Source: an uncultured Acidobacteriota bacterium
GTDB taxonomy: Bacteria > Acidobacteriota > Thermoanaerobaculia > Gp7-AA8
Assembly (NCBI GenBank): GCA_963741955.1
Contig: CAVUKB010000004.1
Span: 160,001-224,000, forward strand
DNA length: 64,000 bases
Direction of reading: 5' to 3'
This document shows positions 28,319 to 52,134 of this stretch, piece after piece. Under the pieces are notes generated by a model. It ran no database searches, was not told the origin of the DNA, and was given only the letters and a program-made list of their open reading frames with translations. Every line of letters starts with the position of its first letter. The stretch's first letter is position 1. Both the position numbers and the translations under genes were made by a program.

Positions 28319-28327
28319 GACGAGACC

Positions 28328-29113: not shown

Positions 29114-30202
29114 ATGACGGGCTCGCGCGCGCTCACGCAACCCCGCTGGAAGCGTGCGGTGGAGGAGTTCTCCGCGGTGAACTTCGCCATGGTGATGGCC
29201 ACCGGCATCGTCTCCATCGCCGCCGAGCTCCTGGGGTGGGAAGCGGTCGGCATCATTCTCTTCTGGGTCAACGTCACGGCGTTCGCGCTCTTTCTGGTGA
29301 TGATGACGGCGCGGGTGGCGCTCTTCCCGCGGCGGGTGTTCTCCGAGATGATCGATCACATGCTCGGGGCTGGATACTTCACCGCCGTCGCGGCGTCGTG
29401 CATTCTCGGGACGCAGCTGATCCGGCTCTTCGGGAACTATCACCTGGCGATGGTCCTCTGGATCTTCGGCATCGTTCTGTGGGTGGGGCTCACGTACACG
29501 TTCTTCACCGCGCTGACGGTGAAGGAAGAGAAGCCGCTGCTGAATGAGGGGATCAGCGGGGCGTGGCTCGTGGCGGTGGTCGCCACACAGTCGATCGCGA
29601 TCCTCTCCACGCTGATGGCCGCGCACTGGCCGCAGCCGTGGCGTCTGATGGCGAACTTCCTCGGGTTGTCGATGTGGCTGTGGGGCGGAATGCTCTACAT
29701 CTGGATGATCTCGCTGATCTTCTACCGCTACACGTTCTTCAAGTTCCCGCCGGGAGACCTGACCCCGCCGTACTGGATCAACATGGGAGCGATGGCGATC
29801 TCGACTCTGGCCGGTTCGCTGCTGATCGTGAACAGCGGTCCCGAGGCTCCGTATCTGATGTCGCTTCGTCCGTTTCTGGAAGGATTCACGGTGTTCTATT
29901 GGGCGACCGGAACGTGGTGGATTCCGATGCTGGTGCTGCTCGGGTTCTGGCGCTACGTCTACAAGGGATATCCGCTGCAGTACGACCCGCTGTACTGGGG
30001 CGCGGTCTTTCCGCTCGGGATGTACACCGCGGCGACGTTCCAGATGGCGCACGCGATGAAGCTCGGGTTCCTCCTCCCGCTCCCCCGAGGCTTTTTCTTC
30101 ATCGCGCTCGGCGCGTGGCTGATGACGTTCGTGGGACTCTGCCGATCCTCGCTGCGGAGCGGAGGGATGGCGCTGTCCGCAGGGGGAGGGCGCGGGGTGT
30201 GA
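29114..30202 (+). CDS. TDT/SLAC1-family (tellurite-resistance/dicarboxylate) transporter
   Basis: FAMVMATGIVSI, GAWLVAVVATQS, LTPPYWINMGAMAISTLAG, YWGAVFPLGMY. Confidence 0.92.
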   Translation: MTGSRALTQPRWKRAVEEFSAVNFAMVMATGIVSIAAELLGWEAVGIILFWVNVTAFALFLVMMTARVALFPRRVFSEMIDHMLGAGYFTAVAASCILGTQLIRLFGNYHLAMVLWIFGIVLWVGLTYTFFTALTVKEEKPLLNEGISGAWLVAVVATQSIAILSTLMAAHWPQPWRLMANFLGLSMWLWGGMLYIWMISLIFYRYTFFKFPPGDLTPPYWINMGAMAISTLAGSLLIVNSGPEAPYLMSLRPFLEGFTVFYWATGTWWIPMLVLLGFWRYVYKGYPLQYDPLYWGAVFPLGMYTAATFQMAHAMKLGFLLPLPRGFFFIALGAWLMTFVGLCRSSLRSGGMALSAGGGRGV

Positions 30203-30330
30203 GTGGTTTTTCCACGGCATCCGAAGGCGCGTGAGCTCCCCTCTGCTGGGGGAGTCGTCCGGGCGAGGCATCAGCGTTCCGTTTCCGGGGGCGCCTTGAC
30301 GCCTCATGTGTACCGTGGTACATTCGTACC

Positions 30331-35009: not shown

Positions 35010-35110
35010 GACGAATGGCTCGCGACCGAGCCGCGGCGTACGGTTCGGGCTGCTTGCGAGACTGAGGCCAGGTCCCCTTTTACATATCATGGATCGTCTT
35101 TCGGTGCCGT

Positions 35111-35296
35111 GAGGGAGAGGGAGAGGGAGAGGCGAGAGGCGAGAGGCGAGAGGCGAGAGGCGAGAGGCGCGGGGGGAGAGGCGCGGGGTTCGAGGCTCGA
35201 GGCTCGAGGCTCGGAAAGCATACGGGAGCAGAGACAACGGGGAGCAGAGACAACGGGGAGCAGAGACAACGAGGTGCGGAGACAAGGGGGAGCAAC
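35111..35296. repeat. short tandem repeats (GAGAGGC x6, TCGAGGC x3, 16-mer GGAGCAGAGACAACGG x3)
   Basis: Read directly in the intergenic region. Confidence 0.9.
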
Positions 35297-35341: not shown

Positions 35342-36664
35342 TCAGGCGAGGGAAGTGAGCTGGTGAGGGCGGAGGACGGCGGCGAGGTCCTTTGCGAAAC
35401 GCGACGCGTCATCCTCGTGCAGCGCGGAGATGGTGACGCGGATCGCAGGCGGGGTGCGAAGGCGGAAGCGCTCGCCCGCACTCACGGCCCATCCGCGGTC
35501 GCGGAGTGCGGTGACGACGCTGCTCTCTCCGGGGACGGGAATCCAGACATTGAGCCCCGACCGGCCGTGGGCTTCGATTCCTGCCGATTTCAGCGCGTCG
35601 AGAAGAGCGCGGCGGCGTTGGGTGTAGGTTCGTGACGCGGCACGAAGTGCGGCGCGGCCTCCGTGTCCGCCGAGGAGTGCGAGAGTCAGCTCCTGCAGGA
35701 CGAAGCTGACCCAGCGCATCCCGACGCGCTGGCGCGCTTCGACGCGACCGACCGTCAGGGGGTCGCCGGTGAGGAACGCGACCCGAAGGTCGGGACCGAG
35801 GAATTTCGAAACGGAGCGAACCACCACCCAGTGAGAGATCTCGCGGATGGCGAGGGTTCTCGCGGCGATGCCGGCCACCGGACCCGCGTGATCGTCTTCC
35901 ACGAGGAGAATCGAGGGGTGACGCCGCAGGATTTTCCGGAGCGCGGTGACGCGAGACTCGGAGAGGGCGGCTCCGGTCGGGTTCTGCGCGCGCGGGGTGA
36001 CGATGAGCGCGCGGACGTCGGAGGCGAGTGCGCTCCGGAGATCTTCGGCGATGGGACCATCGTCGTCGACGACAAAGGGAACGGGGATCAACCCGAGCGA
36101 TGCGACGAGATGGAGGATGCCGTGGAAGGAGGGGTCTTCGACGGCCACCCGGTCGCCGGAGCGGAGGTGCTCGCGGAGGACGCGCTCGATTCCGTCGAGC
36201 GCTCCCGCGACGACGGCGACCGGGCCGTGGGGGATGCCGTCGCGATCGAGCTCCTGCCGGACCAGACGCACGAGGCGCGGATGCGCGAGCTCCTCCCCGT
36301 ACAGACGGATGCCGGGGTGGAGCGCGTGGAGGGCCGCGGAGAAAGGGGGGAGAAGCGCCGGATCGGGATTGCCGTCGGAGAGATCGTGAAGGGAGGAGGG
36401 GACGGGCGGTGCGGGGTTCGTGGCGAATTGCGGGCGAGGCTGGATCCGGGTTCCGCGGCGGCGGTCTCCGGCGGCGACGCCGCGGTTTCGGAGGATGCGG
36501 TAGGCCGCGGCGACCGTCCCGGGACTCACACCGAGCTCGGTGGCGAGGGCGCGGACGGGAGGGAGGAGGTCTCCGGAGGCGAGCTCGCCGGCGTCGACCA
36601 TGGATTCGACCGCGGCGGCGATATTGACCGCGCCGCTCCCGGTGAGGTATTTTTGTATAGTCAC
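35342..36664 (-). CDS. MocR/GntR-family PLP-dependent transcriptional regulator (PtsJ-like)
   Basis: N-terminal wHTH LPPVRALATELGVSPGTVAAAY and aminotransferase domain TPRAQNPTG, EDDH, RSVSKFLGPDLR. Confidence 0.93.
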   Translation of the reverse strand: MTIQKYLTGSGAVNIAAAVESMVDAGELASGDLLPPVRALATELGVSPGTVAAAYRILRNRGVAAGDRRRGTRIQPRPQFATNPAPPVPSSLHDLSDGNPDPALLPPFSAALHALHPGIRLYGEELAHPRLVRLVRQELDRDGIPHGPVAVVAGALDGIERVLREHLRSGDRVAVEDPSFHGILHLVASLGLIPVPFVVDDDGPIAEDLRSALASDVRALIVTPRAQNPTGAALSESRVTALRKILRRHPSILLVEDDHAGPVAGIAARTLAIREISHWVVVRSVSKFLGPDLRVAFLTGDPLTVGRVEARQRVGMRWVSFVLQELTLALLGGHGGRAALRAASRTYTQRRRALLDALKSAGIEAHGRSGLNVWIPVPGESSVVTALRDRGWAVSAGERFRLRTPPAIRVTISALHEDDASRFAKDLAAVLRPHQLTSLA

Positions 36665-36689: not shown

Positions 36690-36699
36690 GGAGATGTCA

Positions 36700-37395
36700 A
36701 TGGCCTCCTACGACTCCACTCCACGGACCAGAGTCCGCCGCAAGCGGGAGCGCGGCACCCACGAGAGTGAAGTGATCCACTCCATCCTCGACCAGGCGAT
36801 GATCTGTCACGTCGGGTTCGTCGACGAAGGCACCCCGTTCGTCATCCCCACCATTCACGCCAGAGTGGGGGAGGTCGTTTACCTTCACGGCTCGCCCGGA
36901 AGCCGGATGCTGAGGATCGCCGGGTCGGGCCAGGAGATCTGCATCACCGCGACGCTGGTCGACGGCCTGGTGCTCGCGCGCTCGGCGATGCACCACTCGA
37001 TGAACTACCGCTCGGTGGTGGTTCTCGGCCGCGGTCGGGCAATCACCGGACGCGAGGAGAAGCTCGCCGCGATGCACGCGATCGTCGAGCACGTCGCGCC
37101 GGGTCGCTGGAACGAGAGTCGCGAGCCGTCCGAGAGCGAGCTCGCCGCGACCGCAGTGGTCGCGGTGGAGATCCGTGAAGCGTCGGCGAAGCGCCGGAGC
37201 GGTCCACCCGTGGATGCCGAGGCGGATTACGTCCTGCCACATTGGGCGGGAGTGATCCCGATGCAGATGATGATGGGCGAGCCTCTTCCGGATCCACGAC
37301 TCGAAGGCGAGCTGCCGCTCCCTCCGTCGGTCGAGGCGATGGTCGAGATGCAGGAACTCGGGGAATCTTCCGTTTCGGGACGCGACGGGGTATAA
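36700..37395 (+). CDS. pyridoxamine 5'-phosphate oxidase-like flavin-binding protein
   Basis: RKRERG, CHVGF, YLHGS, DGLVLARSAMHHSMNYRSVV; AAGGAG RBS (start 36694 or 36700). Confidence 0.92.
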   Translation: MASYDSTPRTRVRRKRERGTHESEVIHSILDQAMICHVGFVDEGTPFVIPTIHARVGEVVYLHGSPGSRMLRIAGSGQEICITATLVDGLVLARSAMHHSMNYRSVVVLGRGRAITGREEKLAAMHAIVEHVAPGRWNESREPSESELAATAVVAVEIREASAKRRSGPPVDAEADYVLPHWAGVIPMQMMMGEPLPDPRLEGELPLPPSVEAMVEMQELGESSVSGRDGV

Positions 37396-37409
37396 ATCTC
37401 CCACCCCAC

Positions 37410-39260
37410 GTGAACGCCACGGAAGAGCTGATCGCGCCGAACGCCCGCCGCGCTCCCCGCGCCCTCCGCCGCGCCATTCTTTGCGCGATACCCATCGTAA
37501 CGGTGCTCGCGGTGATGTTCGCGATCCGGATTCCGCTTCTCACCGCGGCGGGTGTGGTGCGCGGGTGGAGCAGCGACTCCGCCATCATCGCGATGATGGG
37601 GAAGAAGATCTACGAAGGACGCGGGTTCGACATCTTTTTCTGGGGTCAGAATTATCTCGGTCCGCTCAGTGCGCTCTACACTGCGGCGGCCGCGGTTCTG
37701 GTTAGGATTCTTCATCCGTCGGAGAACATCTGGCCCCTCGCCTCGAGGATCGGAAGCATCGCCTGCTACGCCTCGGGCGTGGTCTTCTACTGGCTCGGCT
37801 TCCGCCATGTTTCGGAGCGCGCCGCGGTGATCGTGGCGATTTTCCTGGCGATCGGCCCTCCCTTCTACTTCCACGATTCGGTCATCTCGTACGGTCCGGA
37901 GATGGCGTTCCTCCTCGGCGGCCTCCTTTTCTGGATCGGAGCCGGCCAGCTGACCGCTTCTCCCGGCCGCGGTCCACTCGATTCTTCCGCGGGGCGTTTC
38001 GCATTCGGTCTCGTTGCGGGGCTCGGGTGGTGGATGAACCAGGGAGTGGTCTTCTCTCTCGCAGGGATCGTCTGGGTCCTGGTGATGCGAGCCTCCTGGT
38101 ATCCGGCGTTCCGGGCGAAATGGAAGATCGCCGACCGGCTGCTCGTCCATACCGAGCGGCTGGGGTGGGAGCCGCTCGCTTCTGCCGCCCGCTTTGCGCT
38201 GCTCGGAGTGGAGAGCCTCGCGCTCATTCAGATCGTGCTGTTCGTGATCGATGATCTCGCGCCTCTTCCGTTCAACCTCTTCTTCCTCTATTCACCGCTG
38301 CTGGAGCCACTCCTCGTGGTGGTCGTCCTTCAGTTCGTGCTGGCGGTTCGTGGAGGTGAGCTCCGGATCTCGCTTCACGGAGCGAAGCGAGGGTCGGAGG
38401 CCGCGGCCGGAGAGCTCCCGCGTCCGTCACAAATTCATCGCGGATTCCGTTTGATCGTCCCGGTCGCAATCGGTGCCGTGATCGGGTATGCACCGGTCTG
38501 GCTCGGCGGGATGCTCGGCTGGTACGAGCGCTCGTATTCGTTCTATATCGACATCAACTATCCCCGGGGACTCTTCGTCGAGACGATCCTCACTTTCACT
38601 CGCGCGCTACCCGAGCTGATCGGCGCCGGCGCGGCACCGCTGGGCGCACTCTGGGGCGCAGGAGTGGTCGTGCTTCTCGGGTGGAGCGGGTGGCGTAATC
38701 GACGGGAGGTCGTGGCGTTCATCTTTCAACAGCCGGCGCGCTGGGGCGTGACCGGTCTGGCAAGTGCGATCTTCACTGCGAACCTGGTCTTCTTCTGCAT
38801 CGGCCAGCGTCCGCTGGGGAAAATGCATTACCTGATCGCGGCTCTCCCCATGGCGTTCGGCGTGCTCTCGATCGAGATCGAAGCGGCGGCTCGTCTCGGA
38901 AAGCGACAGGAGTTCCTGATGTCCGTTCTCCTGCTCCTCGGAATCGGATCTCTCGCGCTCGGCGCCCGAACCGTGACGGGCTCGATTCTCTCGGAGCCGG
39001 ATCCGATGAGAGTGGTGAGATCGATCGAGCGCGAAGGATACCGGGTCTGTTACGCGGACTTCTGGGTTGCGTACAAAGCGGAGTTCCTCTCCGGAGGTCG
39101 AATCCGGTTCATTCCCTACCTTTCGCAGGACAGGACGCGCCGCGAGAGCGCGGCACTCGAGGCGTTGCCGGTGCCGAAGTGCATCGTGCGCTCCGATGGG
39201 ACCGTTGCGAGGTTCACCGCCGCCGACGTGCCGACGTCAGTGGTGACACCGCGGCGTTGA
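37410..39260 (+). CDS. multi-pass membrane protein, probable GT-C glycosyltransferase
   Basis: WSSDSAIIAMM...FFWGQNYLG loop after TM1, many TM segments, YADFWVAY; start uncertain. Confidence 0.65.
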   Translation: MNATEELIAPNARRAPRALRRAILCAIPIVTVLAVMFAIRIPLLTAAGVVRGWSSDSAIIAMMGKKIYEGRGFDIFFWGQNYLGPLSALYTAAAAVLVRILHPSENIWPLASRIGSIACYASGVVFYWLGFRHVSERAAVIVAIFLAIGPPFYFHDSVISYGPEMAFLLGGLLFWIGAGQLTASPGRGPLDSSAGRFAFGLVAGLGWWMNQGVVFSLAGIVWVLVMRASWYPAFRAKWKIADRLLVHTERLGWEPLASAARFALLGVESLALIQIVLFVIDDLAPLPFNLFFLYSPLLEPLLVVVVLQFVLAVRGGELRISLHGAKRGSEAAAGELPRPSQIHRGFRLIVPVAIGAVIGYAPVWLGGMLGWYERSYSFYIDINYPRGLFVETILTFTRALPELIGAGAAPLGALWGAGVVVLLGWSGWRNRREVVAFIFQQPARWGVTGLASAIFTANLVFFCIGQRPLGKMHYLIAALPMAFGVLSIEIEAAARLGKRQEFLMSVLLLLGIGSLALGARTVTGSILSEPDPMRVVRSIEREGYRVCYADFWVAYKAEFLSGGRIRFIPYLSQDRTRRESAALEALPVPKCIVRSDGTVARFTAADVPTSVVTPRR

Positions 39261-41438: not shown

Positions 41439-43208
41439 ATGAATACGACCTCGCGAAGAACGTTCCCCTGGATTCTTGCCGGGATCTACCTCGGGGTTTC
41501 GGCGGTCTGGATCATCGCATCGGATTCGGTTCTCCACGCGATGGTCGGAAACGCCGCCGAGGTCCAGCACTGGCAGACCGCGAAAGGACTCTTCTTCATC
41601 GCGGGGACGACCGCGATGCTGTTTGCGATCGTGCGTCGATACGACGAGAGTCTCGAGGCGCGTTCGCGCGAGCTTCGCGGGTCACGGGAGCAGTTCCGGA
41701 GTCTCTTCGACACGGCGATGGACGCGATCATCACCATCGACGAAAACCAGAACGTGGTGATGGCGAACGAGGCGGCCCGGGAGATGTTTCGCTGCGGGGA
41801 CGAGGATCTGGCCGGGAAGTCGATCGATCTCCTCATCCCGACCGCGGCAAGAGAGCGGCATCGGGCGATGGTCACCGAGTTCGGAGAGTCGGGGCGGACC
41901 GATCGGTCGCTCCGACACAAGCCGGTTCTGACCGGACGCCGCCTTGACGGAACCGAGTTCCCGATGGAAGCGAGCATCTCCCGCTATACCGTCGAGGGAA
42001 ACATCTATTTCACCGCGATCGTGCGGGACGTCGCGGATCGGGTGATACGGGACGAGGAACGTCGCCGGCTCCTCGAGCGGACCGAGCTGCTGATGGATTC
42101 GACGAGCGACGGGTTCGTCCTGGTGGACGAAGATGGGCGGCTCCTTCTCCTGAATCGGAGCGGTGAGGCGATGCTGGGAAGTGCCGCCGAGGAGCTGATC
42201 GGAACGAACATCCGCGACGCGGTGCGCTCCGTCGAGTCGCAGGACGACCATGACAAGGCGCTCTCGGTCGTCTTCGCCGGGATCCCGATCGAGCACCGGA
42301 AGCTGGAGCTGACCCGGCGCGACGGGACGACGCTTCCGATCGAGCTCTCGGCCACGCCTCTGAAGCAGGACGGTGAGATGCGCGGAGCGGCCGTCTCGAT
42401 GCGGGATCTGACGCTGGTGCACCAGCTGGAGAGCCGGCTGGAAGAAGTGCGGCGCGTGGAGAGTCTCGGAAAACTCACCGCGGTCGTGAGCCACGAGATG
42501 AAGAACATCCTGATGAGCATTCAGGCGTTCCTCGATGTGATCCGACGCGTGGATGGGATGGGAGAGAAGGTACACACCGCGATCAGCGGAATCTCGCGCG
42601 CGATCGAGCGTGGAAGGACCATTACCAGCGAGGTTCTACGTTTCTCGAAGGCGCAGTCGCCGGATCCGGAAGTGATCGACGCAGCTCGTTTTCTCTCCAC
42701 GATCGAGCCCGGGCTTCGGAGTCTCCTCACGCCGAAGGTCGAGCTGGTGATGGACATCGCCACGGAGAGAGTGGGACGGTTCAGCGCGGATACCGGTCAG
42801 CTCGAACAGGTCTTCGTGAACCTGGTGGCGAACGCGCGGGATGCGATGCCCCAGGGGGGGCGTCTGAAGATCACCGCCGACGTACCACGGACCGAGATCC
42901 CGGGCCTCGGCGGACGCCACGGGATCGAACGCTACATCCATTTCGCGGTCTCGGACACGGGGATCGGGATGTCCGCCGAAGTGCGGGATCACGCGCTCGA
43001 GCCGATGTTCACCACCAAGCGCGCAGGGACCGGCCTGGGACTGGCGGTCGCGCAGCGCATCGTCAGCTCACACGGTGGTTCCCTCCTGATCGACAGCCGT
43101 CTCGGGATCGGGACCACCATCCACATTCTTCTTCCGCGGGAAGTAGAGCCGAACCGCGGCGCCTGGATGCAGCAGGGACCGGATCTCGAGTCGTCGGCGC
43201 CCTGCTGA
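41439..43208 (+). CDS. PAS-domain sensor histidine kinase
   Basis: Two N-terminal TMs, two PAS domains, H-box VSHEMKNIL, N-box NLVANARDAM, DTGIGM, FTTK, GTGLGL. Confidence 0.95.
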   Translation: MNTTSRRTFPWILAGIYLGVSAVWIIASDSVLHAMVGNAAEVQHWQTAKGLFFIAGTTAMLFAIVRRYDESLEARSRELRGSREQFRSLFDTAMDAIITIDENQNVVMANEAAREMFRCGDEDLAGKSIDLLIPTAARERHRAMVTEFGESGRTDRSLRHKPVLTGRRLDGTEFPMEASISRYTVEGNIYFTAIVRDVADRVIRDEERRRLLERTELLMDSTSDGFVLVDEDGRLLLLNRSGEAMLGSAAEELIGTNIRDAVRSVESQDDHDKALSVVFAGIPIEHRKLELTRRDGTTLPIELSATPLKQDGEMRGAAVSMRDLTLVHQLESRLEEVRRVESLGKLTAVVSHEMKNILMSIQAFLDVIRRVDGMGEKVHTAISGISRAIERGRTITSEVLRFSKAQSPDPEVIDAARFLSTIEPGLRSLLTPKVELVMDIATERVGRFSADTGQLEQVFVNLVANARDAMPQGGRLKITADVPRTEIPGLGGRHGIERYIHFAVSDTGIGMSAEVRDHALEPMFTTKRAGTGLGLAVAQRIVSSHGGSLLIDSRLGIGTTIHILLPREVEPNRGAWMQQGPDLESSAPC

Positions 43209-43358
43209 TCCGCTTTCGCAGTAGGACGGTTTCTACCGCGCAGACTCCGAGGAGCGGCCCCATGTGACGGTGGATTCACGCCGGAATGTGACGTTCGTCA
43301 CCGGGGCAGCTGGCCCTTCGCACAGGCGCGATGGGACCTCTCTGTTACAACTTCCATC

Positions 43359-43910
43359 GTGAATAACCTGCAGGAGTCCGTGCTGCGTCTGTGGCCGGAG
43401 ATCGAGTGGATCAGTGAGTCCGATCTCCGGGAGAAAGTGCTGCGAACGTGGGTTCGCGCATTCGAGCTGAGCCCCCTCGAGCCGTCCGATCTCGAGCGGA
43501 TTCCCTTCACTCTTCTCGTGCCGGATTGCCCGGTGACGTTCATGGAGCACAAGAGGTGCGTGGTCCACATCGCACGCCGGGCCGCCGAGTCGATGCAGGA
43601 GTTCATGGGAAACAGCCTGCCGATCGACCTCGACGTGGTGATTGCGGGCGCGATTCTCGCCGATGTCGGGAAGGTGCTGGAGTACGAGATGAAGGACGGG
43701 AAATCACGGCAGAGCGAGCGCGGACGGCTCCTCCGTCACCCGTTCACCGGCGTGGCCGTCGCGATGGAGTGCGGGGTTCCCGACCGGGTCTGTCACATCA
43801 TCGCTGCGCATGCCGACGAAGGGAATCTTGTCAAGCGCTCGACGGAAGCGATCATCGTGCATCACGCCGACTTCATGAGTTATCTCCCGTTCAAGAACCT
43901 CGTTCACTGA
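43359..43910 (+). CDS. HD-superfamily protein (HD doublet replaced by AD)
   Basis: EHKRCVV...GAILADVGKVLEY...LLRHPFTG...HIIAAH...HHADF. Confidence 0.85.
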   Translation: MNNLQESVLRLWPEIEWISESDLREKVLRTWVRAFELSPLEPSDLERIPFTLLVPDCPVTFMEHKRCVVHIARRAAESMQEFMGNSLPIDLDVVIAGAILADVGKVLEYEMKDGKSRQSERGRLLRHPFTGVAVAMECGVPDRVCHIIAAHADEGNLVKRSTEAIIVHHADFMSYLPFKNLVH

Positions 43911-43923
43911 GAGGACCCAGGTC

Positions 43924-45315
43924 ATGTCAACCGTCATGGATCGAGTCACCGCAACGATGTCGCAGTGGGCCGCCGGGGTCGAATACGACGACCTTTCGCC
44001 CGAAGCAGTCCAGCAGGCGAAACGTTTCCTGTTCGATTCGCTCGGCTGTGCGATGGGAGGCTATCAGCAGCACGACGTGCGGATCATGCTCGAGGTGATC
44101 GAGGAGACTGCGGGCGCGGGACGCTCGACTCTCTTCGGCACCGGCCGGCGGATCGATGCGTCCTCCGCCGCGCTGGCGAACTCCCTGATGGTCCGGGTGA
44201 TGGACTACAACGACATCTACTGGCAGCAGGACCCGTCGCATCCTTCGGACCTGATCCCTGCCGCCGTGGCCTGTGCCGAGCGCTCGGGGGCGAACGGACG
44301 TGAGCTGCTGGTCGGCATCGCCATCGCCTACGAGATGGAGATGCGTCTGTGCGAAGCGGCGTTCCCCGGAATTCGAGAGCGCGGATGGCATCATGCGACG
44401 CTCACCGCCTTCGCGTCGCCCGTGGTCGCCGGCCGGATGCTTCGTCTCACACCTGCGCAGATCCAGCATGCGATCGGAATCTCCGGCAGCCGGCACGCGA
44501 CGCTCGGAGCCGTCACGGCGGGCAAGCTGACCATGATGAAGAACACCGTCGATCCGATGGCGACGCAGAGCGGGGTCTTCGCCGCGCTCCTCGCGGAGAA
44601 GGGTTACACCGGGCCGGAGCACGTGATCGACGGGAAGGAAGGATTGGCAGAAGTCTTCGGTCCCGAATGGAAGCTCGGCGTTCTCACCGAAGGTCTCGGC
44701 GCATCATGGCGGATCACCCGCTGCGGGATGAAGGCTTTCCCCACCGAGGCGCTGACGCACGCTCCGATCTCCGCGGTGCTGGACATCGTCCGGGATCATG
44801 ACCTGACCCCCGAAAAGGTGGTGAAGGTGGAGATCCGCTCGCTGGAGCGCGCTGCCGACATCCTCGCGGACCCTTCCAAGTACGAACCGCATTCGAAGGA
44901 GACCGCGGACCATTCGCTCCCGTACGTGATCGCGGCGGCGATCGTCGACCGGCAGGTGACCCCGCGCCAGTTCACGAACGAACGGATCGAAGATCCGCAG
45001 GTCCGGGCTCAGTTGAAGAAGGTGGTGGTGGTCGCCGATCCGGAGATCGAAGCGGTCTTCCCCGCGCTGCAGCGAGTCATCGTCCGGGTGACCACGAGCG
45101 ACGGATCGGTGATCGAGCGGCAGCTCGACTATCCGAAGGGTGATCCGCGTAATCCGCTCACCGATGCCGAGATCGAGGAGAAGTTCGACGCGCTGGCGGA
45201 CGGGGTCCTCTCTCCGATGCGATCGGCGGAGCTGAAGAGCGCGATCCGCAATCTCGAGAATCTCGGCTCGGTATGCGAGTTGACCGGAAATCTGGTTTCA
45301 GAACCGAGGGACTGA
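43924..45315 (+). CDS. prpD: MmgE/PrpD-family dehydratase
   Basis: DYNDIY...SHPSD, RERGWHH, GKLTMMK, ETADHSLPY, YPKGDPRNP. Confidence 0.88.
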   Translation: MSTVMDRVTATMSQWAAGVEYDDLSPEAVQQAKRFLFDSLGCAMGGYQQHDVRIMLEVIEETAGAGRSTLFGTGRRIDASSAALANSLMVRVMDYNDIYWQQDPSHPSDLIPAAVACAERSGANGRELLVGIAIAYEMEMRLCEAAFPGIRERGWHHATLTAFASPVVAGRMLRLTPAQIQHAIGISGSRHATLGAVTAGKLTMMKNTVDPMATQSGVFAALLAEKGYTGPEHVIDGKEGLAEVFGPEWKLGVLTEGLGASWRITRCGMKAFPTEALTHAPISAVLDIVRDHDLTPEKVVKVEIRSLERAADILADPSKYEPHSKETADHSLPYVIAAAIVDRQVTPRQFTNERIEDPQVRAQLKKVVVVADPEIEAVFPALQRVIVRVTTSDGSVIERQLDYPKGDPRNPLTDAEIEEKFDALADGVLSPMRSAELKSAIRNLENLGSVCELTGNLVSEPRD

Positions 45316-47261
45316 TGGGACAGACAGTCGTCGAAAAGATCGCGCAGTCGCATCTCGCCGAGGGGCCTGATCGTCCGCTTCGCGCGGGCGATTTCGTTTC
45401 CATCCGACCCCGTCACATCCTCACTCACGACAATACCGCCGCAGTGATGAAGAAGTTCAGGACCCTCGGCGTCGACCGGGTCCACGACCCGCGGCAGCCG
45501 GTCTTCGCTCTCGATCACGACATCCAGAACACCTCGGAGGAGAACCTCTCCAAGTACCGTGCGATCGAGACGTTCGCGCGCGAGCAGGGGATCGATTTCT
45601 ACCCGGCAGGCACCGGGATCGGACATCAGATCGTGATCGAGCGGGGCTACGCCGTCCCCGGCTCGTTCGTCGTCGCGTCCGACTCGCACTCGAACATGTA
45701 CGGCGCGCTCGGCGCAGTCGGGACTCCGGTGGTGAGGACCGACGCCGCGGCGGTGTGGGCGACCGGAAGCTTCTGGTGGCAGATACCGCGGACTGTGCAG
45801 GTGGTACTGGACGGAAAGCTCGCCGAAGGAGTGACCGGGAAGGACGTGATCATCGCCCTCTGCGGTCTGATCGGCGATGAGGTTCTGAACGCAGCGATCG
45901 AGTTCACCGGACAAGGCGTGCAGTCGCTGACCGTCGAGGAGCGTCTGACCATCGCCAACATGAGCACCGAATGGGGCGTTCTGGTGGCGTGGTTTCCGCC
46001 GAGCGGGATGACGTTTCAGTTTCTGCGGCGCCAGCACGAACGGCTGGTGGAGGAGCAGACACGGGTCGCCTTTGCCGAAGACGATCTGCGACGATGGGAG
46101 GCGGATCCGATCGCACCCGATCCGGACGCGGTGTACGCAGCGCGCCTGGAGCTCGATCTTTCGACGGTGGTCAGGACGGTCGCAGGGCCGGACACGGTTC
46201 AGCTCACGCATTCTCTCGCCACGATCGCTCCGAAGCGGGTGAAGATCGACAAGGCGTATCTCCTCTCCTGCGTCAACTCGCGCCTGGAGGACCTGACCGC
46301 AGCGGCAGAGGTGCTTCGCGGAAAGAAGATCGCTGCCGGAGTGAAGTTCTACGTGGCGGCAGCGAGCCGTCAGGTTCAGCAGGAGGCGGAACGGACCGGA
46401 GTCTGGAACGTTCTGGTGGAGTCGGGAGCGACGCTCCTCCCTCCGTCGTGCGGACCGTGCATCGGGCTGGGAACGGGACTCCTCGAAGCGGGAGAGGTCG
46501 GGATCTCGGCGACGAACCGTAACTTCAAGGGGCGGATGGGATCCCGCGATGCGGCCTGCTATCTCGCCAGTCCGGCGGTGGTCGCGGCATCGGCGCTGGA
46601 GGGAGTGATCACCGCGCCGGGGACCGGATCCGGTGAAACGCGAGTCCGCTTCACCGTGCTGGAGATGCCGGCCGCCGCGCCCGAACTGGTCGACATCGTG
46701 CCGGGCTTTCCCGCCGAGGTTCGCGGGCGGATGCTCTTTCTGCCGTCCGACAATCTGAACACCGACGGCATCTACGGGAAAGACTACACTTACCGTGACG
46801 ACGTCACGCGCGAAGAGATGGCGCGTGTGGTGATGCAGAACTACGACCCGGAGTTCGCGCTTCGGGCTGGAGAAGGTGACGTGATCGTTGCCGGAGCGAA
46901 CTTCGGCACCGGATCGAGCCGCGAGCAGGCGGTCACTGCGCTGCAGGCGCGGGGGATCCGGATGGTGATCGCCACGAGCTTCTCTCAGACCTACCTGCGC
47001 AACGCATTCAACAACGGCTTCCTCTGTGTCGAATGTCCCGAGCTGGTGGCGGCGGCAAAACGCGATCTAACCGGATCGGTGACCGGTGCGAAGACGGTGA
47101 TCTCCGGAGACGTACTGGACATCGACTTCAGAAGCGGGTCGATCCGGTGGAGGGGCCAGGTCTTTCATTTTCAGGCTCTCGGTTCGGTTCCGCAATCACT
47201 GGTCGCGGCGGGTGGGATCGAGAACCTGGTGCGCAGCCGTTTCGCGGCGGCTGCGGTTTGA
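45315..47261 (+). CDS. lysF: single-chain homoaconitase, fungal Lys4/LysF type
   Basis: THDN, LDHDIQN, YPAGTGIGHQI, ASDSHSNMYG, TPVVRTDAAAVWATG..WWQIP, SCVNSR, CGPCIGLG and fused swivel domain NFGTGSSREQA; these closely recall yeast Lys4. Confidence 0.8.
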   Translation: MGQTVVEKIAQSHLAEGPDRPLRAGDFVSIRPRHILTHDNTAAVMKKFRTLGVDRVHDPRQPVFALDHDIQNTSEENLSKYRAIETFAREQGIDFYPAGTGIGHQIVIERGYAVPGSFVVASDSHSNMYGALGAVGTPVVRTDAAAVWATGSFWWQIPRTVQVVLDGKLAEGVTGKDVIIALCGLIGDEVLNAAIEFTGQGVQSLTVEERLTIANMSTEWGVLVAWFPPSGMTFQFLRRQHERLVEEQTRVAFAEDDLRRWEADPIAPDPDAVYAARLELDLSTVVRTVAGPDTVQLTHSLATIAPKRVKIDKAYLLSCVNSRLEDLTAAAEVLRGKKIAAGVKFYVAAASRQVQQEAERTGVWNVLVESGATLLPPSCGPCIGLGTGLLEAGEVGISATNRNFKGRMGSRDAACYLASPAVVAASALEGVITAPGTGSGETRVRFTVLEMPAAAPELVDIVPGFPAEVRGRMLFLPSDNLNTDGIYGKDYTYRDDVTREEMARVVMQNYDPEFALRAGEGDVIVAGANFGTGSSREQAVTALQARGIRMVIATSFSQTYLRNAFNNGFLCVECPELVAAAKRDLTGSVTGAKTVISGDVLDIDFRSGSIRWRGQVFHFQALGSVPQSLVAAGGIENLVRSRFAAAAV

Positions 47262-47383
47262 GGAAGTGCTGCCTCCGGAACCGGAGGGATGGCTGAAAGA
47301 AAGTCGCAGAGGAGTCGAGCGGCGACAAGGCATGACGACGGCTGGACCGCCAGCCGGATGCCGCGCTCCCGGAAGGAGAAGAG

Positions 47384-48592
47384 ATGGCGCGCTACGAAGT
47401 TGTGACGATGCCCGGAGACGGGATTGGGAAGGTGGTTCTGCCGGAAGCGATCCGGGTCCTGGAGAGCGTCGGATTCGACGCGAAGTACATTCACGGGGAC
47501 ATCGGATGGGATTTCTGGTGCTCCGAAGGAAACGCGCTTCCGGACCGCACCATCGCCCTCCTCGAAAAGTACAGGCTGGGACTGTTCGGCGCGATCACTT
47601 CGAAGCCGAAGAAGGAAGCTGATGCCGAGCTCGATCCGTCGCTGAAGGGGAAGGGATACGTCTACTACAGCCCGATCGTGACCATGCGGCAGCGCTTCAA
47701 CCTCGATCTCTGCGTGCGCCCCTGCCGTTCGTTTCCCGGCAATCCATTGAACTTCGTCCGCAAGTCTCCCACCGGGAAAGTGGAGGAGCCGAAGGTCGAT
47801 GCGGTGATCTTCCGGCAGAACACCGAAGGAAGCTACACCGGAGTGGAGTGGACGAATCCTCCCGCTCAGGTGCGTGATGCTCTCGCGACGCACGCGCGGT
47901 TCCGCGCATTCGACGCGGTCCCGGGTGAAGATCTCGCGGTCTCGACCCGGATCGTCACCCGCGGGGCAGTGCAGCGGATCATCCGCGCCGCGTTCGAGTA
48001 CGCGAAGAAGTTCGGCTACCGGTCCGTCACGGTTGCCGAAAAGCCGAACGTCCTTCGCGAGACCTCCGGGATGTTCGAAGAGGAAGCGAAGAAGATCAAG
48101 GCGGAGTTCCCCGGGGTCCAGCTCTGGTCGACGAACATCGACGCGCTGATGATGTGGTTGACGAAGAACCCGGAAGAGTACGGAGTGATCGTGGCGGAGA
48201 ACCTGTTCGGCGACATCATCTCCGATGCGTTCGCCGGCCTGGTCGGAGGGCTCGGTTTCGCCTGTTCCGGAAACGTCGGCGACGAGGTGGCGGTATTCGA
48301 GCCGACCCACGGCTCCGCGCCGAAGTACGAGAAGCTCGATCCTCCGATCGTCAACCCGATCGCGATGATTCTCTCTGCGGCCATGCTTCTCGATCACGTC
48401 GGAGAGACCGAGAAGGGCGACGCGGTGCGCGCAGCGGTGGCGGCCGTCGTCGCGGAGGGGAAAGTCCGCACCTACGACATGATGAGAATCGCCGGCGGTG
48501 CCGACGTCTTCTCGAAAGGCGCCGCGACGACCTCGCAGGTGACCGACGCGATCATCGCGAAGATCGGAAGCAACGTGATGTCGCCGGCGTGA
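47384..48592 (+). CDS. isocitrate/isopropylmalate dehydrogenase family, homoisocitrate-dehydrogenase-like
   Basis: PGDGIG, LFGAITS, YYSPIVTMRQ, RQNTEG, KPNVL, NLFGDIISD, EPTHGSAP. Confidence 0.88.
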   Translation: MARYEVVTMPGDGIGKVVLPEAIRVLESVGFDAKYIHGDIGWDFWCSEGNALPDRTIALLEKYRLGLFGAITSKPKKEADAELDPSLKGKGYVYYSPIVTMRQRFNLDLCVRPCRSFPGNPLNFVRKSPTGKVEEPKVDAVIFRQNTEGSYTGVEWTNPPAQVRDALATHARFRAFDAVPGEDLAVSTRIVTRGAVQRIIRAAFEYAKKFGYRSVTVAEKPNVLRETSGMFEEEAKKIKAEFPGVQLWSTNIDALMMWLTKNPEEYGVIVAENLFGDIISDAFAGLVGGLGFACSGNVGDEVAVFEPTHGSAPKYEKLDPPIVNPIAMILSAAMLLDHVGETEKGDAVRAAVAAVVAEGKVRTYDMMRIAGGADVFSKGAATTSQVTDAIIAKIGSNVMSPA

Positions 48593-48613
48593 GCCGCGCG
48601 ACGGGAGGACGAG

Positions 48614-49846
48614 ATGACGGAACCAGTCGCAGACGTCCGGTACGGTGAGGCCGGGCGCACCGGGGACGACATACGATCCGATCTGCTGGTGCGGATCGAG
48701 CCGCGAACCGGCGGGGGGATCGAGATCGAGCTGGCCTCGAAGGTCGGTGCCTACTACGGCGAAGCGATCCAGCGACAGTGCCGCGAAGTGCTGCGTGATC
48801 TCGGAGTCACCGATGCAGTCCTCCGCATCGACGACCGCGGTGCGCTGCCGTTCGTCATCGCGGCACGGGTGGAGGCGGCGGCGCGCCGCGCCCTCCTCTC
48901 GGACCTCCGCTCGCTTCCGGTTCGAATCGGCATCTCACCCCCTTCGAAGAGCGACCGGCTCCGGCGCTCGCGGCTCTATCTGCCGGGCAATGAGCCGAAG
49001 TACTTCGTCAGTGCTGCGTTGCACGGACCGGACGCCGTGATTCTCGACCTCGAGGATTCGGTCCACCCCAACGAAAAAGATGCGGCGCGAATCGTGGTGC
49101 GCAACGCCCTCCGGGCGGTCGACTTCGGAAGCTGCGAGCGGATGGTGCGCATCAACCCCTTCCCACTCGGGCTCGAGGATCTGGACGAAGTGATTCCGGA
49201 GATGCCCGACGTGATCCTGATCCCGAAGGTGGAGCGGGCGGACGAAGTGATCGAGATCGAAAGGCGGATCGACGAGATTCTCCTCGCCCGCGACCTCGAC
49301 CGGCCGATCTGGCTGATGCCGATCCTCGAATCGGCCCGAGGGATCGAGAACGCATACGAGATCGCCTCGGCGACCTCTCGCGTGGTGGCGCTCACCATCG
49401 GCCTCGAAGACTACACGGCGGACCTCGGCGTCCCGAAGACGAAAGAAGGTCGCGAGTCGGAGTACGCGCGGATGCGGCTGGTCAACGCAGCGCGGGCGGC
49501 CGGAATCCAGGCGATCGACTCGGTGTGGGGTGACGTCGGCGATACGGAAGGGCTGCGCGAATGGGCGCTTCGCTCGCGCGCTCTCGGTTTCACCGGAATG
49601 GGATGTGTGCATCCGCTGCAGGTGGAAGTGATCCACGAGGCGTTTGCACCGACTGCCGAAGAGATCGCGAAGGCAGAGAGAATCGTGAAGGCGTTCCGGG
49701 AGGCGCAGAGGAGGGGACTCGGAGTGGTGAGTCTCGGTTCGAAGATGATCGATCCACCGGTGGTGCTACGGGCGGTGAGACTGGTCGAGCAGGCCTCCGC
49801 GATGGGATTGATCTCCGAGCAGGCAGTGGAAGAGGGTCAGGTATGA
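48614..49846 (+). CDS. citE: citrate lyase acyl-carrier (CitD-like) + beta subunit (CitE) fusion
   Basis: N-terminal approx. 95 aa GEAG...IRSDLLVRIEP...DDRGALPFVIAARVEAA (CitD-like), then LRRSRLYLPGN, DLEDSV, IPKVE, LESARG, GCVHP, KMIDPP. Confidence 0.88.
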   Translation: MTEPVADVRYGEAGRTGDDIRSDLLVRIEPRTGGGIEIELASKVGAYYGEAIQRQCREVLRDLGVTDAVLRIDDRGALPFVIAARVEAAARRALLSDLRSLPVRIGISPPSKSDRLRRSRLYLPGNEPKYFVSAALHGPDAVILDLEDSVHPNEKDAARIVVRNALRAVDFGSCERMVRINPFPLGLEDLDEVIPEMPDVILIPKVERADEVIEIERRIDEILLARDLDRPIWLMPILESARGIENAYEIASATSRVVALTIGLEDYTADLGVPKTKEGRESEYARMRLVNAARAAGIQAIDSVWGDVGDTEGLREWALRSRALGFTGMGCVHPLQVEVIHEAFAPTAEEIAKAERIVKAFREAQRRGLGVVSLGSKMIDPPVVLRAVRLVEQASAMGLISEQAVEEGQV

Positions 49847-51411
49847 CGATCGAGAGTCTGGACGTCGAATTGGTGCGCAACGCCGCGGGACGGCAGGTTC
49901 CCGGAGTGGTGAACGGAAATGCGCAGGTGCCGTTCGAGGGCGTGGACGTTCACCGGCCATCGGGAAGGAAGGCCGCACCGCCGGTTCGCAGCGCGGCGGA
50001 CTATCTGCGGGATGGGGTGAAGCTCGTGCCCGATCTGGCGACGGCCCTCGCCGAATGCGGTCTGCGCGATGGAATGGTCATCTCGACGCATCATCATCTT
50101 CGGGACGGCGATCGGGTCGCCGTGGCGGCGCTCGAAGCAGCGGCGTCGCTCGGAGTGCGGGACCTGATGTGGTTTCCGAGTGCCTCGTTCCCCAGTCAGG
50201 CGAGCGTGATCGACCTGATGGAATCGGGAGTGGTCCACCACATCGAGGGGAGCATGAACGGGCCGCTCGGCGACTACTGCACGCAGGGAAGGATGCGCGG
50301 GCTGGGAGTGCTTCGCTCGCACGGCGGACGGTGGCAGGCGATCCAGGACGGCGAAGTGCACATCGACATCGCGGTGATCGCGGCGCCGAGTGCGGATCCG
50401 TTCGGTAACGCGAACGGATCTCACGGCCCGTCGGCCTGCGGATCGCTCGGGTTCGCGCTCGCCGATTCGACGTATGCGGACAAGGTGATCGTGGTGACGG
50501 ACAACCTGGTGCCGTTCCCCTGCATCCCCTGGCAGATCCAGGGCAACAATGTGGACAAAGTGGTGGTGGTCGACTCGATCGGAGATCCGGCGAAGATCGT
50601 CTCGGGGACGACCCAGATCACGCGTTCGCCCGACCGGCTGCGCATCGCGAAGCTGACTGCGTCCTTCATCCGCGAAGCCGGAATCATGAAGAACGGCTTC
50701 TCATTTCAGGCCGGGGCCGGCGGAATCTCACTCGCCTTCGTCAGCTATCTGCGCGAGATGATGAAGGACGCAGGGGTCAGGGCGCGATTCGTGCGCGGCG
50801 GTTCGACCAAGGTCCTGGTGGAGATGCTCGAGGAGGGATTGATGGACTACATCCTCGACGGGCAGACCTTCGATCTCGACGCGGTGCGATCGATCGCATC
50901 GAATCCGCGACACGTCGCGACCTCGCCCTTCACCTCCTACAACTTCCACGGGAAGGGAAACTTCGCCTCCATGATCGACGCGGTGGTCCTCGGCGCGACG
51001 GAGGTGGACACCTCGTTCAACGGGAACGTGGTGACGCATTCCGATGGACGGCTGCTGCACGGCATCGGCGGATGGCAGAATTGCCTGTACGCCGGCTGCA
51101 CGATTCTCGCGGTGCCGTCGTTCCGCGACCGGACTCCGGTGATCGTGGACGAGGTGACGACGCTGACCGGTCCCGGTGAGCTGATCGACGTGGTGGTGAC
51201 GGAGCGCGGAATCGCGATCAACCCCCGGCGGAAAGATCTGCTCGACGCGGTCGCGGGGTCAGGTCTCCCGATCCGGCCGATCGAGGCGCTGAAGGCGGAG
51301 ATCGAGAGCATCTGCGGAAGGCCGGAGAGGCCGAAGCGGACTGCCCGCCCGGCCGCGGTGGTGAAATGGGTGGACGGTACGGTACTGGATACGGTGTGGG
51401 AGCTGGAGTGA
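49843..51411 (+). CDS. citF: citrate lyase alpha subunit (CoA/ACP transferase)
   Basis: GLRDGMVISTHHHLRDGD, RSHGGR, SACGSLG, SFQAGAGG, LGATEVD, DVVVTERGIAINPRR, DGTVLD. Confidence 0.92.
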   Translation: MTIESLDVELVRNAAGRQVPGVVNGNAQVPFEGVDVHRPSGRKAAPPVRSAADYLRDGVKLVPDLATALAECGLRDGMVISTHHHLRDGDRVAVAALEAAASLGVRDLMWFPSASFPSQASVIDLMESGVVHHIEGSMNGPLGDYCTQGRMRGLGVLRSHGGRWQAIQDGEVHIDIAVIAAPSADPFGNANGSHGPSACGSLGFALADSTYADKVIVVTDNLVPFPCIPWQIQGNNVDKVVVVDSIGDPAKIVSGTTQITRSPDRLRIAKLTASFIREAGIMKNGFSFQAGAGGISLAFVSYLREMMKDAGVRARFVRGGSTKVLVEMLEEGLMDYILDGQTFDLDAVRSIASNPRHVATSPFTSYNFHGKGNFASMIDAVVLGATEVDTSFNGNVVTHSDGRLLHGIGGWQNCLYAGCTILAVPSFRDRTPVIVDEVTTLTGPGELIDVVVTERGIAINPRRKDLLDAVAGSGLPIRPIEALKAEIESICGRPERPKRTARPAAVVKWVDGTVLDTVWELE

Positions 51412-51420
51412 GGGGAAAAC

Positions 51421-51595
51421 GAATTCAGGATTCAGGATGAAGAATTGAGAATTGAGGATGAAGAACGAAGATCCTTGTCGGTCCTGGCTCCTCGATCTCC
51501 TCGCGGAATCTCCCAACCTCTACCTCAAAGGGTGAACTGATTCCTCCTCCGCTCTCTTTTCTGCATTCTGAATTCTGAATTCTGCATTCTGAACT
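51421..51595. repeat. oppositely oriented heptamer repeat tracts between convergent genes
   Basis: GAATTCA/GGATTCA/GAATTGA-type units at 51421-51460 and TTCTGCA/TTCTGAA x5 at 51559-51593. Confidence 0.75.
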
Positions 51596-52134
51596 CATCT
51601 TCTCTCTCGTAAGGCGTCCACCACCGCTTCGAAGCGCCCCTCGGCACAGAGCCCGCTCATGCCAGCCTCCTCCCAGACTCGGGTCGCGATCTGCGCCGGC
51701 GTCTCGACCGCGAGCGGCGGAGGCGTCGTCATTCGCTGACGGAGTGTCTCGAGAAGCTCCTCTTCCTCGCCGGGGGCGAAGGCGACCCGGCTCTCCATCT
51801 CGATCGCGTCCATGACTTCCGCGCGGGTGGCTGCGCGCGAGACGGGATAGATGTGGAGGTGGAGATGTGGCACCTGGAGGCCGAGCTTGAGGAGGATGGC
51901 GCGGTCGGCGCCGGTCACTGCGAGGAGCGCCTCCTCCACGCGTCTGAAGAAATGGACGAATTCGCCTGCCTGTTGCTCTGATAGAGAGGAGAGATTCTCG
52001 ACGTGCCTCTTCGCGACCACTACGGCGTGGCCACGGAGTGCGTGGTCGTCGCTGAGGAGGGCCAGGGCGACCGGGCTCTCGGCGAAGACCTCGGGGCGGT
52101 TGATGTCGTAGCCGCAGAAGTGACAGGCACTCAT
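51595..52134 (-). CDS. HIT-family protein with C-terminal extension
   Basis: CHFC, GHAVV, QVPHLHLHIYP histidine triad. Confidence 0.9.
   Translation of the reverse strand: MSACHFCGYDINRPEVFAESPVALALLSDDHALRGHAVVVAKRHVENLSSLSEQQAGEFVHFFRRVEEALLAVTGADRAILLKLGLQVPHLHLHIYPVSRAATRAEVMDAIEMESRVAFAPGEEEELLETLRQRMTTPPPLAVETPAQIATRVWEEAGMSGLCAEGRFEAVVDALRERR

Follow-up and report, generated by a model that had tools for sequence, protein, structure and literature searches.

A conserved six-gene operon of Acidobacteriota and other bacterial phyla as a candidate module for shortening or elongating 2-oxoacids through homocitrate-series tricarboxylates

Positions 43359-51411 (+) of a 64,000-nucleotide stretch of DNA from an uncultured Acidobacteriota bacterium (contig CAVUKB010000004.1; the whole stretch is called the window here) hold six co-oriented, tightly packed genes, for an HD-domain protein, a member of the MmgE/PrpD family, a fused aconitase, a beta-decarboxylating dehydrogenase, a CitD-CitE fusion, and a CitF-like transferase. 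The genes recur together in related loci, and the operon is read here, tentatively and with somewhat less than even confidence, as a self-contained, thioester-conserving module that would shorten or elongate 2-oxoacids in four steps acting on homocitrate-series tricarboxylates.

In the first of these steps the NADP-type dehydrogenase would interconvert 2-oxoadipate + CO2 + NADPH and homoisocitrate, and in the second the Lys4-type aconitase would interconvert homoisocitrate and cis-homoaconitate. The MmgE/PrpD-family protein, probably together with the HD protein, would perform the third step, between cis-homoaconitate and homocitrate. The citrate-lyase-like proteins would complete the path: CitF would exchange the acetyl group held as a thioester by the CitD-like domain for homocitrate, freeing acetate, and CitE would split the resulting homocitryl-S-acyl carrier protein (ACP) into 2-oxoglutarate and acetyl-S-ACP. 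Because the thioester is recycled, neither a coenzyme A (CoA) ester nor ATP would be used, and the net reaction would be 2-oxoadipate + CO2 + NADPH <-> 2-oxoglutarate + acetate + NADP+. A hydratase-only homoaconitase, a separate dehydratase candidate, and a lyase are a chemically coherent four-step path. The separate dehydratase would be needed because Lys4-type enzymes catalyze only the second half-reaction, fungal Lys4/LysF reportedly hydrating cis-homoaconitate only; PrpD is likewise said to supply the dehydration of (2S,3S)-2-methylcitrate that aconitase cannot perform. The methylcitrate series itself is excluded because the dehydrogenase family needs a secondary alcohol, and plain citrate is disfavored because one aconitase handles citrate alone, which would make an extra dehydratase and a substrate loop unlike that of isocitrate dehydrogenase (IDH) superfluous.

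Relatives were collected with a profile from 20 aconitase proteins, run against one genome per GTDB species, which returned at least 591; the locus counts given here rest on the best 80 of these, each with up to 10 kb of flank. Gene presence was scored by tblastn with the window proteins, and a flank counted as adequate from 2.3 kb on the upstream side and from 4.5 kb on the downstream side of the aconitase gene. Of the 60 loci having both flanks, 58 carry the complete set; the HD and MmgE/PrpD genes occur in 70 of 70 loci with adequate upstream sequence, and the dehydrogenase, CitD-CitE, and CitF genes in 61 of 64 with adequate downstream sequence. The encoded proteins are mostly 62-82% identical to those of the window, and an independent clustering of open reading frames (ORFs) recovered the exact colinear order in 51/80 loci, most of the others being interrupted by contig ends. 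The first-pass annotation had made its single-pathway view depend on conservation of the genes as a unit, and this is borne out; because the full set occurs in all but two of the adequately flanked loci, the arrangement is far beyond chance. Most of the 80 loci come from Acidobacteriota, including Thermoanaerobaculaceae and one Candidatus (Ca.) Solibacter genome (L079). Gemmatimonadota (L037, L064, L072, L073), Rhodothermales (L058, L068), and Latescibacterota (L066) are also represented, and conservation of gene order spans four phyla.

Rearranged loci are informative about the internal structure of the operon. In four of them (L056, L060, L062, L067) HD and MmgE/PrpD are encoded in the opposite orientation, several kb upstream, and have stayed direct neighbors; the genes for the aconitase, dehydrogenase, CitD-CitE, and CitF remain together. 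Because the pair moves together, this indicates that HD and MmgE/PrpD form a two-gene sub-module. Outside the six genes the most frequent ORF family occurs in at most 14 of the 80 loci, and the recurring flank families are housekeeping ones: a PNP-type phosphorylase, MGMT, GidA, and an S-adenosylmethionine hydrolase. Across 81 sources (the window and the 80 loci), tblastn with E. coli queries found no CitC, CitG, CitX, CitT, LeuA, or PrpC, the LeuA query standing for the homocitrate-synthase family, and no synthase of LeuA or citrate-synthase type is linked in these sources; CitD, CitE, and CitF of the same E. coli operon as CitC, CitG, and CitX matched 30, 66, and 64 sources. PrpB gave weak matches only (26-30% identity) in 5/81 sources, each 6-10 kb from the operon. 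The first-pass annotation had listed a homocitrate or methylcitrate synthase, PrpB, and citC/citG/citX as missing from the cluster, and these searches agree with it. It had also listed the LysW genes, and for these the statement holds in that the cluster has no room for a protein of about 54 residues, although no search aimed at LysW was made.

The fused aconitase scores 702.8 bits against the TIGR00139 homoaconitase equivalog, well beyond the cut-off of 529.9; the next model stands at 382 bits, and the PRK07229 aconitate hydratase model at 371, below its cut-off of 612. Pfam assigns Aconitase (351.8 bits) and Aconitase_C (66.6 bits). Residues 3-645, which include the fused swivel domain, align with LYS4 of Aspergillus nidulans (LYS4_EMENI, P0304) at 47% identity (333/713), and among 1.84 billion cluster representatives a high-ranking full-length match, P0124 (52% identical), is the cluster of Aspergillus LysF or 'homoaconitase, mitochondrial'. 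Database relatives number at least 8000; the 119 best besides the protein itself are 66-70% identical, and those with names are called homoaconitase and come from Acidobacteriota/Terriglobia and similar taxa. A plasmid collection held no close relative, the best of 46 records being 34.8% identical. In a quick maximum-likelihood tree (IQ-TREE, 40 rows), the window and locus proteins form a 12-row clade with a Shimodaira-Hasegawa-like approximate likelihood ratio test (SH-aLRT) value of 99, nested in a 32-row group (SH-aLRT 100) that also contains the fungal clade (SH-aLRT 100) and excludes LeuC-like and PRK07229-type aconitases.

Sequence motifs of the aconitase agree with this placement. The [4Fe-4S] ligands C319, C379, and C382 are invariant in the alignment, SC[VA]NSR is kept in 80/80 orthologues and CGPCIG in 79/80. 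The specificity loop of the swivel domain reads YTYR in the window protein, [Y/H]TYR in 76/80 orthologues, and YTYK in 2/80, which gives a basic residue in 78/80; the same loop reads YTYQ in LysF, YLRT in Methanocaldococcus jannaschii HacB, which has an arginine, and YLVY in isopropylmalate isomerase. The suggestion that the enzyme is a bacterial counterpart of fungal Lys4/LysF is upheld by the homoaconitase equivalog, the identity to the A. nidulans enzyme, and the shared clade in the quick tree, and its probable function is that of a cis-homoaconitate <-> homoisocitrate hydratase.

The dehydrogenase belongs to the Iso_dh family (PF00180, 262.5 bits) and falls below every NCBIfam cut-off, the best models being those of AksF-type homoisocitrate dehydrogenases (HICDHs) at 257.2 bits (cut-off 540) and 255.2 bits (cut-off 500); it represents a distinct subfamily. 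Among solved relatives, Thermus HICDH scores 185 bits, an NAD-IDH 179, E. coli IDH about 143, and Schizosaccharomyces pombe HICDH 137. Y151, K220, D253, D277, D281, R102, R112, and R144 are invariant among the window protein, E. coli Icd, LeuB, and four orthologues; by analogy with E. coli IDH we take them to be the catalytic Tyr and Lys, the three metal-binding Asp, and the substrate-binding Arg residues. The substrate loop reads S-P-I-V in the window protein, S113-L-N115-V in E. coli Icd, and G-A-I-R85 in Thermus HICDH, with Leu-Leu at the Ile-Val positions in LeuB, and SPIV is found in at least 64/68 orthologues. Asn115 of E. coli Icd, a ligand of the isocitrate gamma-carboxylate, is replaced by Ile in the window protein and four aligned orthologues; the NAD-IDH has Asn at this position and Thermus HICDH has Ile. 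Because this Asn is lost from the loop, isocitrate is an unlikely substrate, and the probable reaction is homoisocitrate <-> 2-oxoadipate + CO2.

The cofactor motif HGSAPKY is present in the window protein and in 68/68 orthologues, in place of the APDI of Thermus HICDH and E. coli LeuB. K344, Y345, V351, Y391, and R395 of E. coli NADP-IDH, which we take to be the NADP determinants, are all five matched, and the protein has the length and the insertions of that enzyme. The dehydrogenase is probably NADP(H)-linked; characterized HICDHs of lysine synthesis use NAD+. The first-pass annotation had seen a Lys12-like pattern in it, but the dehydrogenase is not specifically Lys12-like: the S. pombe enzyme scores lower than Thermus HICDH, and the cofactor site is a Lys-Tyr of NADP-IDH type rather than Asp-Ile. 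The 'SPIV' of that pattern is a putative Lys12 signature; a PDB search with a 71-residue piece of the dehydrogenase returned no fungal HICDH.

Several observations weigh against a module that acts on homocitrate, and they begin with the lyase complex itself. The fusion protein has a CitD-like carrier domain at about residues 1-95 (PF06857 at 22-93, 70.1 bits) and a CitE-like C-C lyase at about residues 115-400 (PF03328 at 118-334, 178.8 bits) that is 37% identical to E. coli CitE, and the CitF-like protein (PF04223, 435.4 bits) matches E. coli CitF at 38% identity across 482 residues. The CitD domain passes both citrate-lyase citD models (67.1 bits against 63.5 and 67.8 against 65), and CitF nearly reaches the TIGR01584 cut-off of 501.45 with 484.2 bits, 17 bits short; the citE equivalog is missed clearly (271.1 against 443.4 bits). 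Because CitF nears and CitD passes the citrate-lyase cut-offs, citrate is a possible substrate of the lyase, and the operon could be a CoA-independent citrate branch, 2-oxoglutarate + CO2 + NADPH <-> isocitrate <-> cis-aconitate <-> citrate <-> acetate + oxaloacetate. To these scores such a branch would add the NADP-IDH length, insertions, and presumed five-residue cofactor pattern of the dehydrogenase, together with its Ser at the position of Icd Ser113. The Ile in place of Asn115, the near-universal SPIV loop, and the Lys4-clade aconitase, with its far lower score against the aconitate hydratase model, argue the other way, and since one aconitase would suffice, the MmgE/PrpD and HD genes would be left without a role. 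We consider the citrate branch quite unlikely.

The carrier raises a further difficulty for the proposed module. MAFFT aligns its R-S-D serine (Ser22) one column away from the Ser14 that in E. coli CitD carries the 2'-(5''-phosphoribosyl)-3'-dephospho-CoA group, and because this serine is kept in 64/65 CitD-CitE fusions, the carrier function appears to be under selection. Every characterized citrate lyase depends on citC, citG, and citX for the synthesis and charging of its prosthetic group; in the sequence searched, the window and the 80 loci, all three are absent, which counts against the proposed module.

The Ile-Val loop of the dehydrogenase would suit a hydrophobic 3-alkylmalate as well, and the operon may instead use malates with a different 2-substituent (for example citramalate/citraconate/3-methylmalate, 2-isopropylmalate, or some plant or soil tricarboxylate yet to be identified), converting them to acetate and the matching 2-oxoacid or elongating them. 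The Ile-Val pair corresponds to Leu-Leu in E. coli LeuB and to Ile-Arg in Thermus HICDH, and an R85V mutant of Thermus HICDH reportedly gains isopropylmalate activity. A malate-series substrate would also accommodate a CitE part well under the citE cut-off, and the citramalate lyase of clostridia is a CitDEF-type complex. It accords poorly with the Arg or Lys that nearly all orthologues of the aconitase carry in the specificity loop, unlike the YLVY of isopropylmalate/citramalate isomerase, with the extent of identity to fungal homoaconitase, and with the absence from the 80 loci of any linked transporter or regulator for an external substrate. Taken together, the evidence makes such a series unlikely, and homocitrate remains the substrate preferred here.

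The protein that the first-pass annotation named PrpD is a member of the MmgE/PrpD superfamily only (PF03972, 251.8 bits; PF19305, 160.2 bits); it is not a PrpD orthologue, scoring 61.3, 87.5, and 109.8 bits against the PrpD equivalogs TIGR02330, NF006943, and NF042438 (cut-offs 458, 575, and 950) and sharing 23% identity with E. coli PrpD. Its assignment as the homocitrate dehydratase is that of a candidate, drawn from gene context. The nearest structures are iminodisuccinate (IDS) epimerase at 154 bits, Bacillus subtilis IRG1 at 128, and cis-aconitate decarboxylase (CAD) at 104, ahead of PrpD at 35-58, and five of seven mapped active-site positions of human CAD are kept (D93, H103, H159, K207, K272), with T97 changed to Ile and H277 to Glu, so that the reaction type cannot be read from the sequence. 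The protein might thus be a decarboxylase or isomerase of the CAD/IRG1 or IDS epimerase kind in an operon that handles an itaconate-like acid, for example 2-methyleneglutarate made from cis-homoaconitate, bypassing homocitrate. The order of the structural matches and the five kept residues speak for this, yet two positions are changed, those that are kept may be family-wide, and the CitDEF-like lyase would lose its operon-made substrate. A decarboxylase or isomerase role is accordingly given a low probability, and the protein is treated in what follows as a candidate dehydratase.

Gene content also supplies points on the opposing side. Three loci (L007, L031, L059) have 10 kb of downstream sequence but lack the lyase genes, and L007 lacks the dehydrogenase gene as well; unrelated genes come next (an efflux system, a sigma-54 activator, and others). 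L007 and L059 hold the aconitase, HD, and MmgE/PrpD genes, and the contig of L031 starts inside the MmgE/PrpD gene, so that HD is off the contig. Nor do the 80 loci contain any linked gene of lysine catabolism or biosynthesis, transporter, or regulator that would mark the source or fate of 2-oxoadipate.

The HD protein (PF01966, 36.8 bits; cut-off 22) is as conserved as the enzymes, at 72-80% identity across phyla, and its gene is always first when in operon order and always beside the MmgE/PrpD gene. The first-pass annotation had offered no reading of this gene, although it is an integral part of the operon. The HD dyad reads Ala-Asp (GA[IV]LADVGK) in 69/70 orthologues, the canonical His being missing. 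Of 55 longer homologues, 46 are about 317 residues long (P0394-P0408, P0410-P0440), and those aligned and scanned carry an N-terminal AcnX swivel domain (PF01989) followed by HD, with 41-46% identity over about 94% of the HD length and likewise Ala-Asp in place of the dyad; the one named AcnX-HD fusion comes from a Chloroflexi metagenome-assembled genome. The fusions tie the family to aconitase-superfamily dehydratases a second time and independently. Together with the constant pairing of the HD gene with that for MmgE/PrpD, they suggest that the HD protein assists one or more dehydration steps as an accessory, and comparison with the fusions suggests that the family is a previously unrecognized accessory domain of aconitase-superfamily dehydratases.

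Structure searches placed the HD protein in general terms. An AlphaFold2 model, with a predicted local distance difference test (pLDDT) score of 87.4, has a generic HD fold; its best PDB match is YhaM (E 4e-4), the one hit at E <= 0.001, and only generic HD domains were returned. A search of the Atlas gave uncharacterized HD clusters only. Prediction of a complex between HD and the aconitase scored 0.00 in a run without controls and gives no verdict either way. A metal cluster on four conserved HD cysteines was considered and dropped, as these cysteines are not kept in the AcnX-fused homologues, and apparent fusions of HD to citrate synthase (P0444), YbhB (P0443), and MmgE/PrpD (P0409, P0441) seem to stem from gene calls with frameshifts or truncations and were given no weight.

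Direction has to be weighed separately for a homocitrate-series module. Run in reverse, the four steps are a full round of 2-oxoacid elongation, and the operon could supply the early half of the alpha-aminoadipate lysine pathway without a synthase, converting acetate + 2-oxoglutarate to 2-oxoadipate, as the first-pass annotation had allowed. The citrate-lyase reaction is near equilibrium at the 1 M standard state, and an oxidative decarboxylation could pull synthesis; the housekeeping surroundings, without a catabolic regulator or transporter, also count toward a synthetic role, although a constitutive endogenous role in either direction fits them. To our knowledge, citrate-lyase-type enzymes act physiologically only as lyases, and the cofactor site is of NADP type, where Thermus HICDH has Asp-Ile; characterized HICDHs of lysine synthesis use NAD+, as noted above. 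No aminotransferase and none of LysW/X/Z/Y/J/K is conserved nearby in the 80 loci. In Ca. Solibacter usitatus a lysine riboswitch controls asd-lysC, which belong to the aspartate/diaminopimelate (DAP) route, and this points to aspartate-derived lysine in that lineage (PMC5584792); a Ca. Solibacter genome carries the operon. This weakens the case for a synthase-free entry to aminoadipate and lysine, and such a role in lysine synthesis is judged improbable. Because of the NADP-type site, the lyase family, and the riboswitch, cleavage, as a means of 2-oxoadipate disposal, is slightly favored over synthesis.

A more specific form of the homocitrate scheme concerns stereochemistry. A pro-3S (Si-type) lyase would use the homocitrate enantiomer opposite to the product of a Re-type homocitrate synthase, that is, (S)-homocitrate, a form beyond the reach of dehydration by an aconitase-type enzyme. 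The lyase would then require a PrpD-type partner, an arrangement known from the methylcitrate cycle. This argument builds on the stereochemistry of citrate (pro-3S)-lyase, Re-type homocitrate synthases, and PrpD. In its fullest version, which we hold to be rather unlikely as a whole, the operon would be an ATP- and CoA-independent, near-equilibrium shuttle between C5 and C6 2-oxoacids via (S)-homocitrate, with HD as a new accessory dehydratase subunit, and the route would occur widely among dominant soil phyla, including Acidobacteriota and Gemmatimonadota.

The layout of the operon is given in Table 1. Inspection of ORFs and start codons, with Pfam and NCBIfam scans that confirmed the family of each gene, bears out the first-pass description of six co-oriented, partly overlapping genes down to the end coordinate of 51411. 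The aconitase ATG overlaps the preceding MmgE/PrpD stop by one base, and the CitF start shares a 4-nt ATGA overlap with the citDE stop. A longer CitF ORF from 49561 was rejected as an over-extension. For the HD gene an alternative start at 43380 (176 aa), used by a public record, is possible.

Table 1. Genes of the six-gene operon in the window
Feature	Position	Strand	Description
HD-domain protein	43359-43910	+	183 aa from GTG at 43359; Pfam HD PF01966
MmgE/PrpD-family protein	43924-45315	+	463 aa; PF03972 + PF19305
Fused aconitase	45315-47261	+	648 aa; large + swivel domains; TIGR00139
Iso_dh-family beta-decarboxylating dehydrogenase	47384-48592	+	402 aa; PF00180
CitD(ACP)-CitE fusion	48614-49846	+	PF06857 + PF03328 (HpcH_HpaI)
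CitF-like acyl-ACP:carboxylate transferase	49843-51411	+	522 aa; PF04223

Within 42800-52000, no riboswitch or other Rfam family exceeded its gathering score, and promoter and terminator scans did not rise above shuffles. The operon is preceded by a PAS histidine kinase gene and followed by a convergent HIT gene, a hydrolase gene, and EttA, none of which recurs in related loci. The convergent citF-like and HIT genes are separated by 183 nt, a space filled by a 42-nt imperfect inverted repeat (51421-51582), 79% complementary and built of GAATTC/AGGAT-like short repeats, with an RNA fold of -63 kcal/mol (z = -3.8) and a sub-threshold Rfam hairpin match only. This structure could serve as a bidirectional terminator or represent a small repeat element.

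Other features lie further from the operon. The first third of the window contains an IS66-family transposase (6164-7261, -), a Mutator-family transposase (17937-19127, +), and an RHS-repeat ORF (7929-8996, +), with patchy G+C of 0.58-0.68, and this region may be mobile or recently acquired. A GntR-aminotransferase (MocR-type) regulator gene (35342-36664, -) diverges from a pyridoxamine-phosphate-oxidase-like gene (36694-37395, +), a typical regulator/target pair related to pyridoxal phosphate. The ORF at 32778-35285 (-) encodes 835 aa with glycosyltransferase family 20 (trehalose-phosphate synthase type) at residues 360-818 and an N-terminal part of about 350 residues without a Pfam match. 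Three further ORFs without Pfam matches, at 37242-39260 (+), 27479-30307 (-), and 2081-4354 (+) (672, 942, and 757 aa), may be spurious high-G+C frames or unknown proteins.

Each of the six proteins comes from a known superfamily, and their combination matches no described pathway that was found; a full-text literature search, with subscription-only papers and supplements outside its reach, returned no description of this gene set. The fungal alpha-aminoadipate pathway (Aco2/AcoA, Lys4/LysF, and Lys12) resembles the operon in having a Lys4-type fused homoaconitase followed by a beta-decarboxylating dehydrogenase, and in needing a second protein for homocitrate <-> cis-homoaconitate. In fungi, however, that partner is an aconitase rather than an MmgE/PrpD protein with HD. 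The dehydrogenase of the operon also differs in its NADP-type site and IDH-like insertions, and the operon has neither a linked homocitrate synthase, whose place a lyase complex takes, nor the later lysine genes. The elongation systems of Thermus (LysS/T/U/Hicdh) and methanogens (AksA/D/E/F) share the four-step scheme and include the best matches of the dehydrogenase, Thermus HICDH and AksF. These systems have split HacA/HacB, an acetyl-CoA-dependent synthase of the LeuA family, and NAD+; the operon has a fused fungal-type aconitase, no linked synthase, and an NADP-type site.

The remaining two comparisons concern the lyase and the dehydratase. Like the citCDEFXG citrate lyase of E. coli and Klebsiella, the operon encodes a serine-bearing carrier, a CitE-type lyase, and a CitF-type transferase, the latter two 37-38% identical to their counterparts. 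Its CitD is fused to CitE, however, neither the window nor any of the 80 loci has citC, citX, citG, or a citrate carrier, CitE and CitF fall under their equivalog cut-offs, and the genes are set among those of homoaconitase type. The methylcitrate cycle (PrpC-PrpD-AcnB-PrpB) likewise uses a non-aconitase MmgE/PrpD dehydratase to form a cis-alkene that a member of the aconitase family then rehydrates. The operon departs from it in a protein only distantly related to PrpD, in having neither a linked PrpC nor a PrpB conserved nearby, and in a dehydrogenase that excludes 2-methylisocitrate, a tertiary alcohol.

2-Oxoadipate is a node in the breakdown of lysine, hydroxylysine, and tryptophan and a precursor of aminoadipate, and we know of no metabolic map or annotation pipeline that represents a route between 2-oxoadipate and 2-oxoglutarate + acetate. 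PGAP and IMG label the genes singly, as homoaconitase or citrate lyase, silently implying lysine biosynthesis and citrate fermentation. If the proposed reactions are correct, the Lys4-type homoaconitase clade would gain its first bacterial function, the poorly understood MmgE/PrpD family a new activity, and the citrate-lyase-type complexes a member with a new substrate and no linked CitC/G/X. The small HD family that accompanies dehydratases would offer a lead of its own, and abundant soil bacteria would join 2-oxoadipate to 2-oxoglutarate without spending a CoA ester or ATP.

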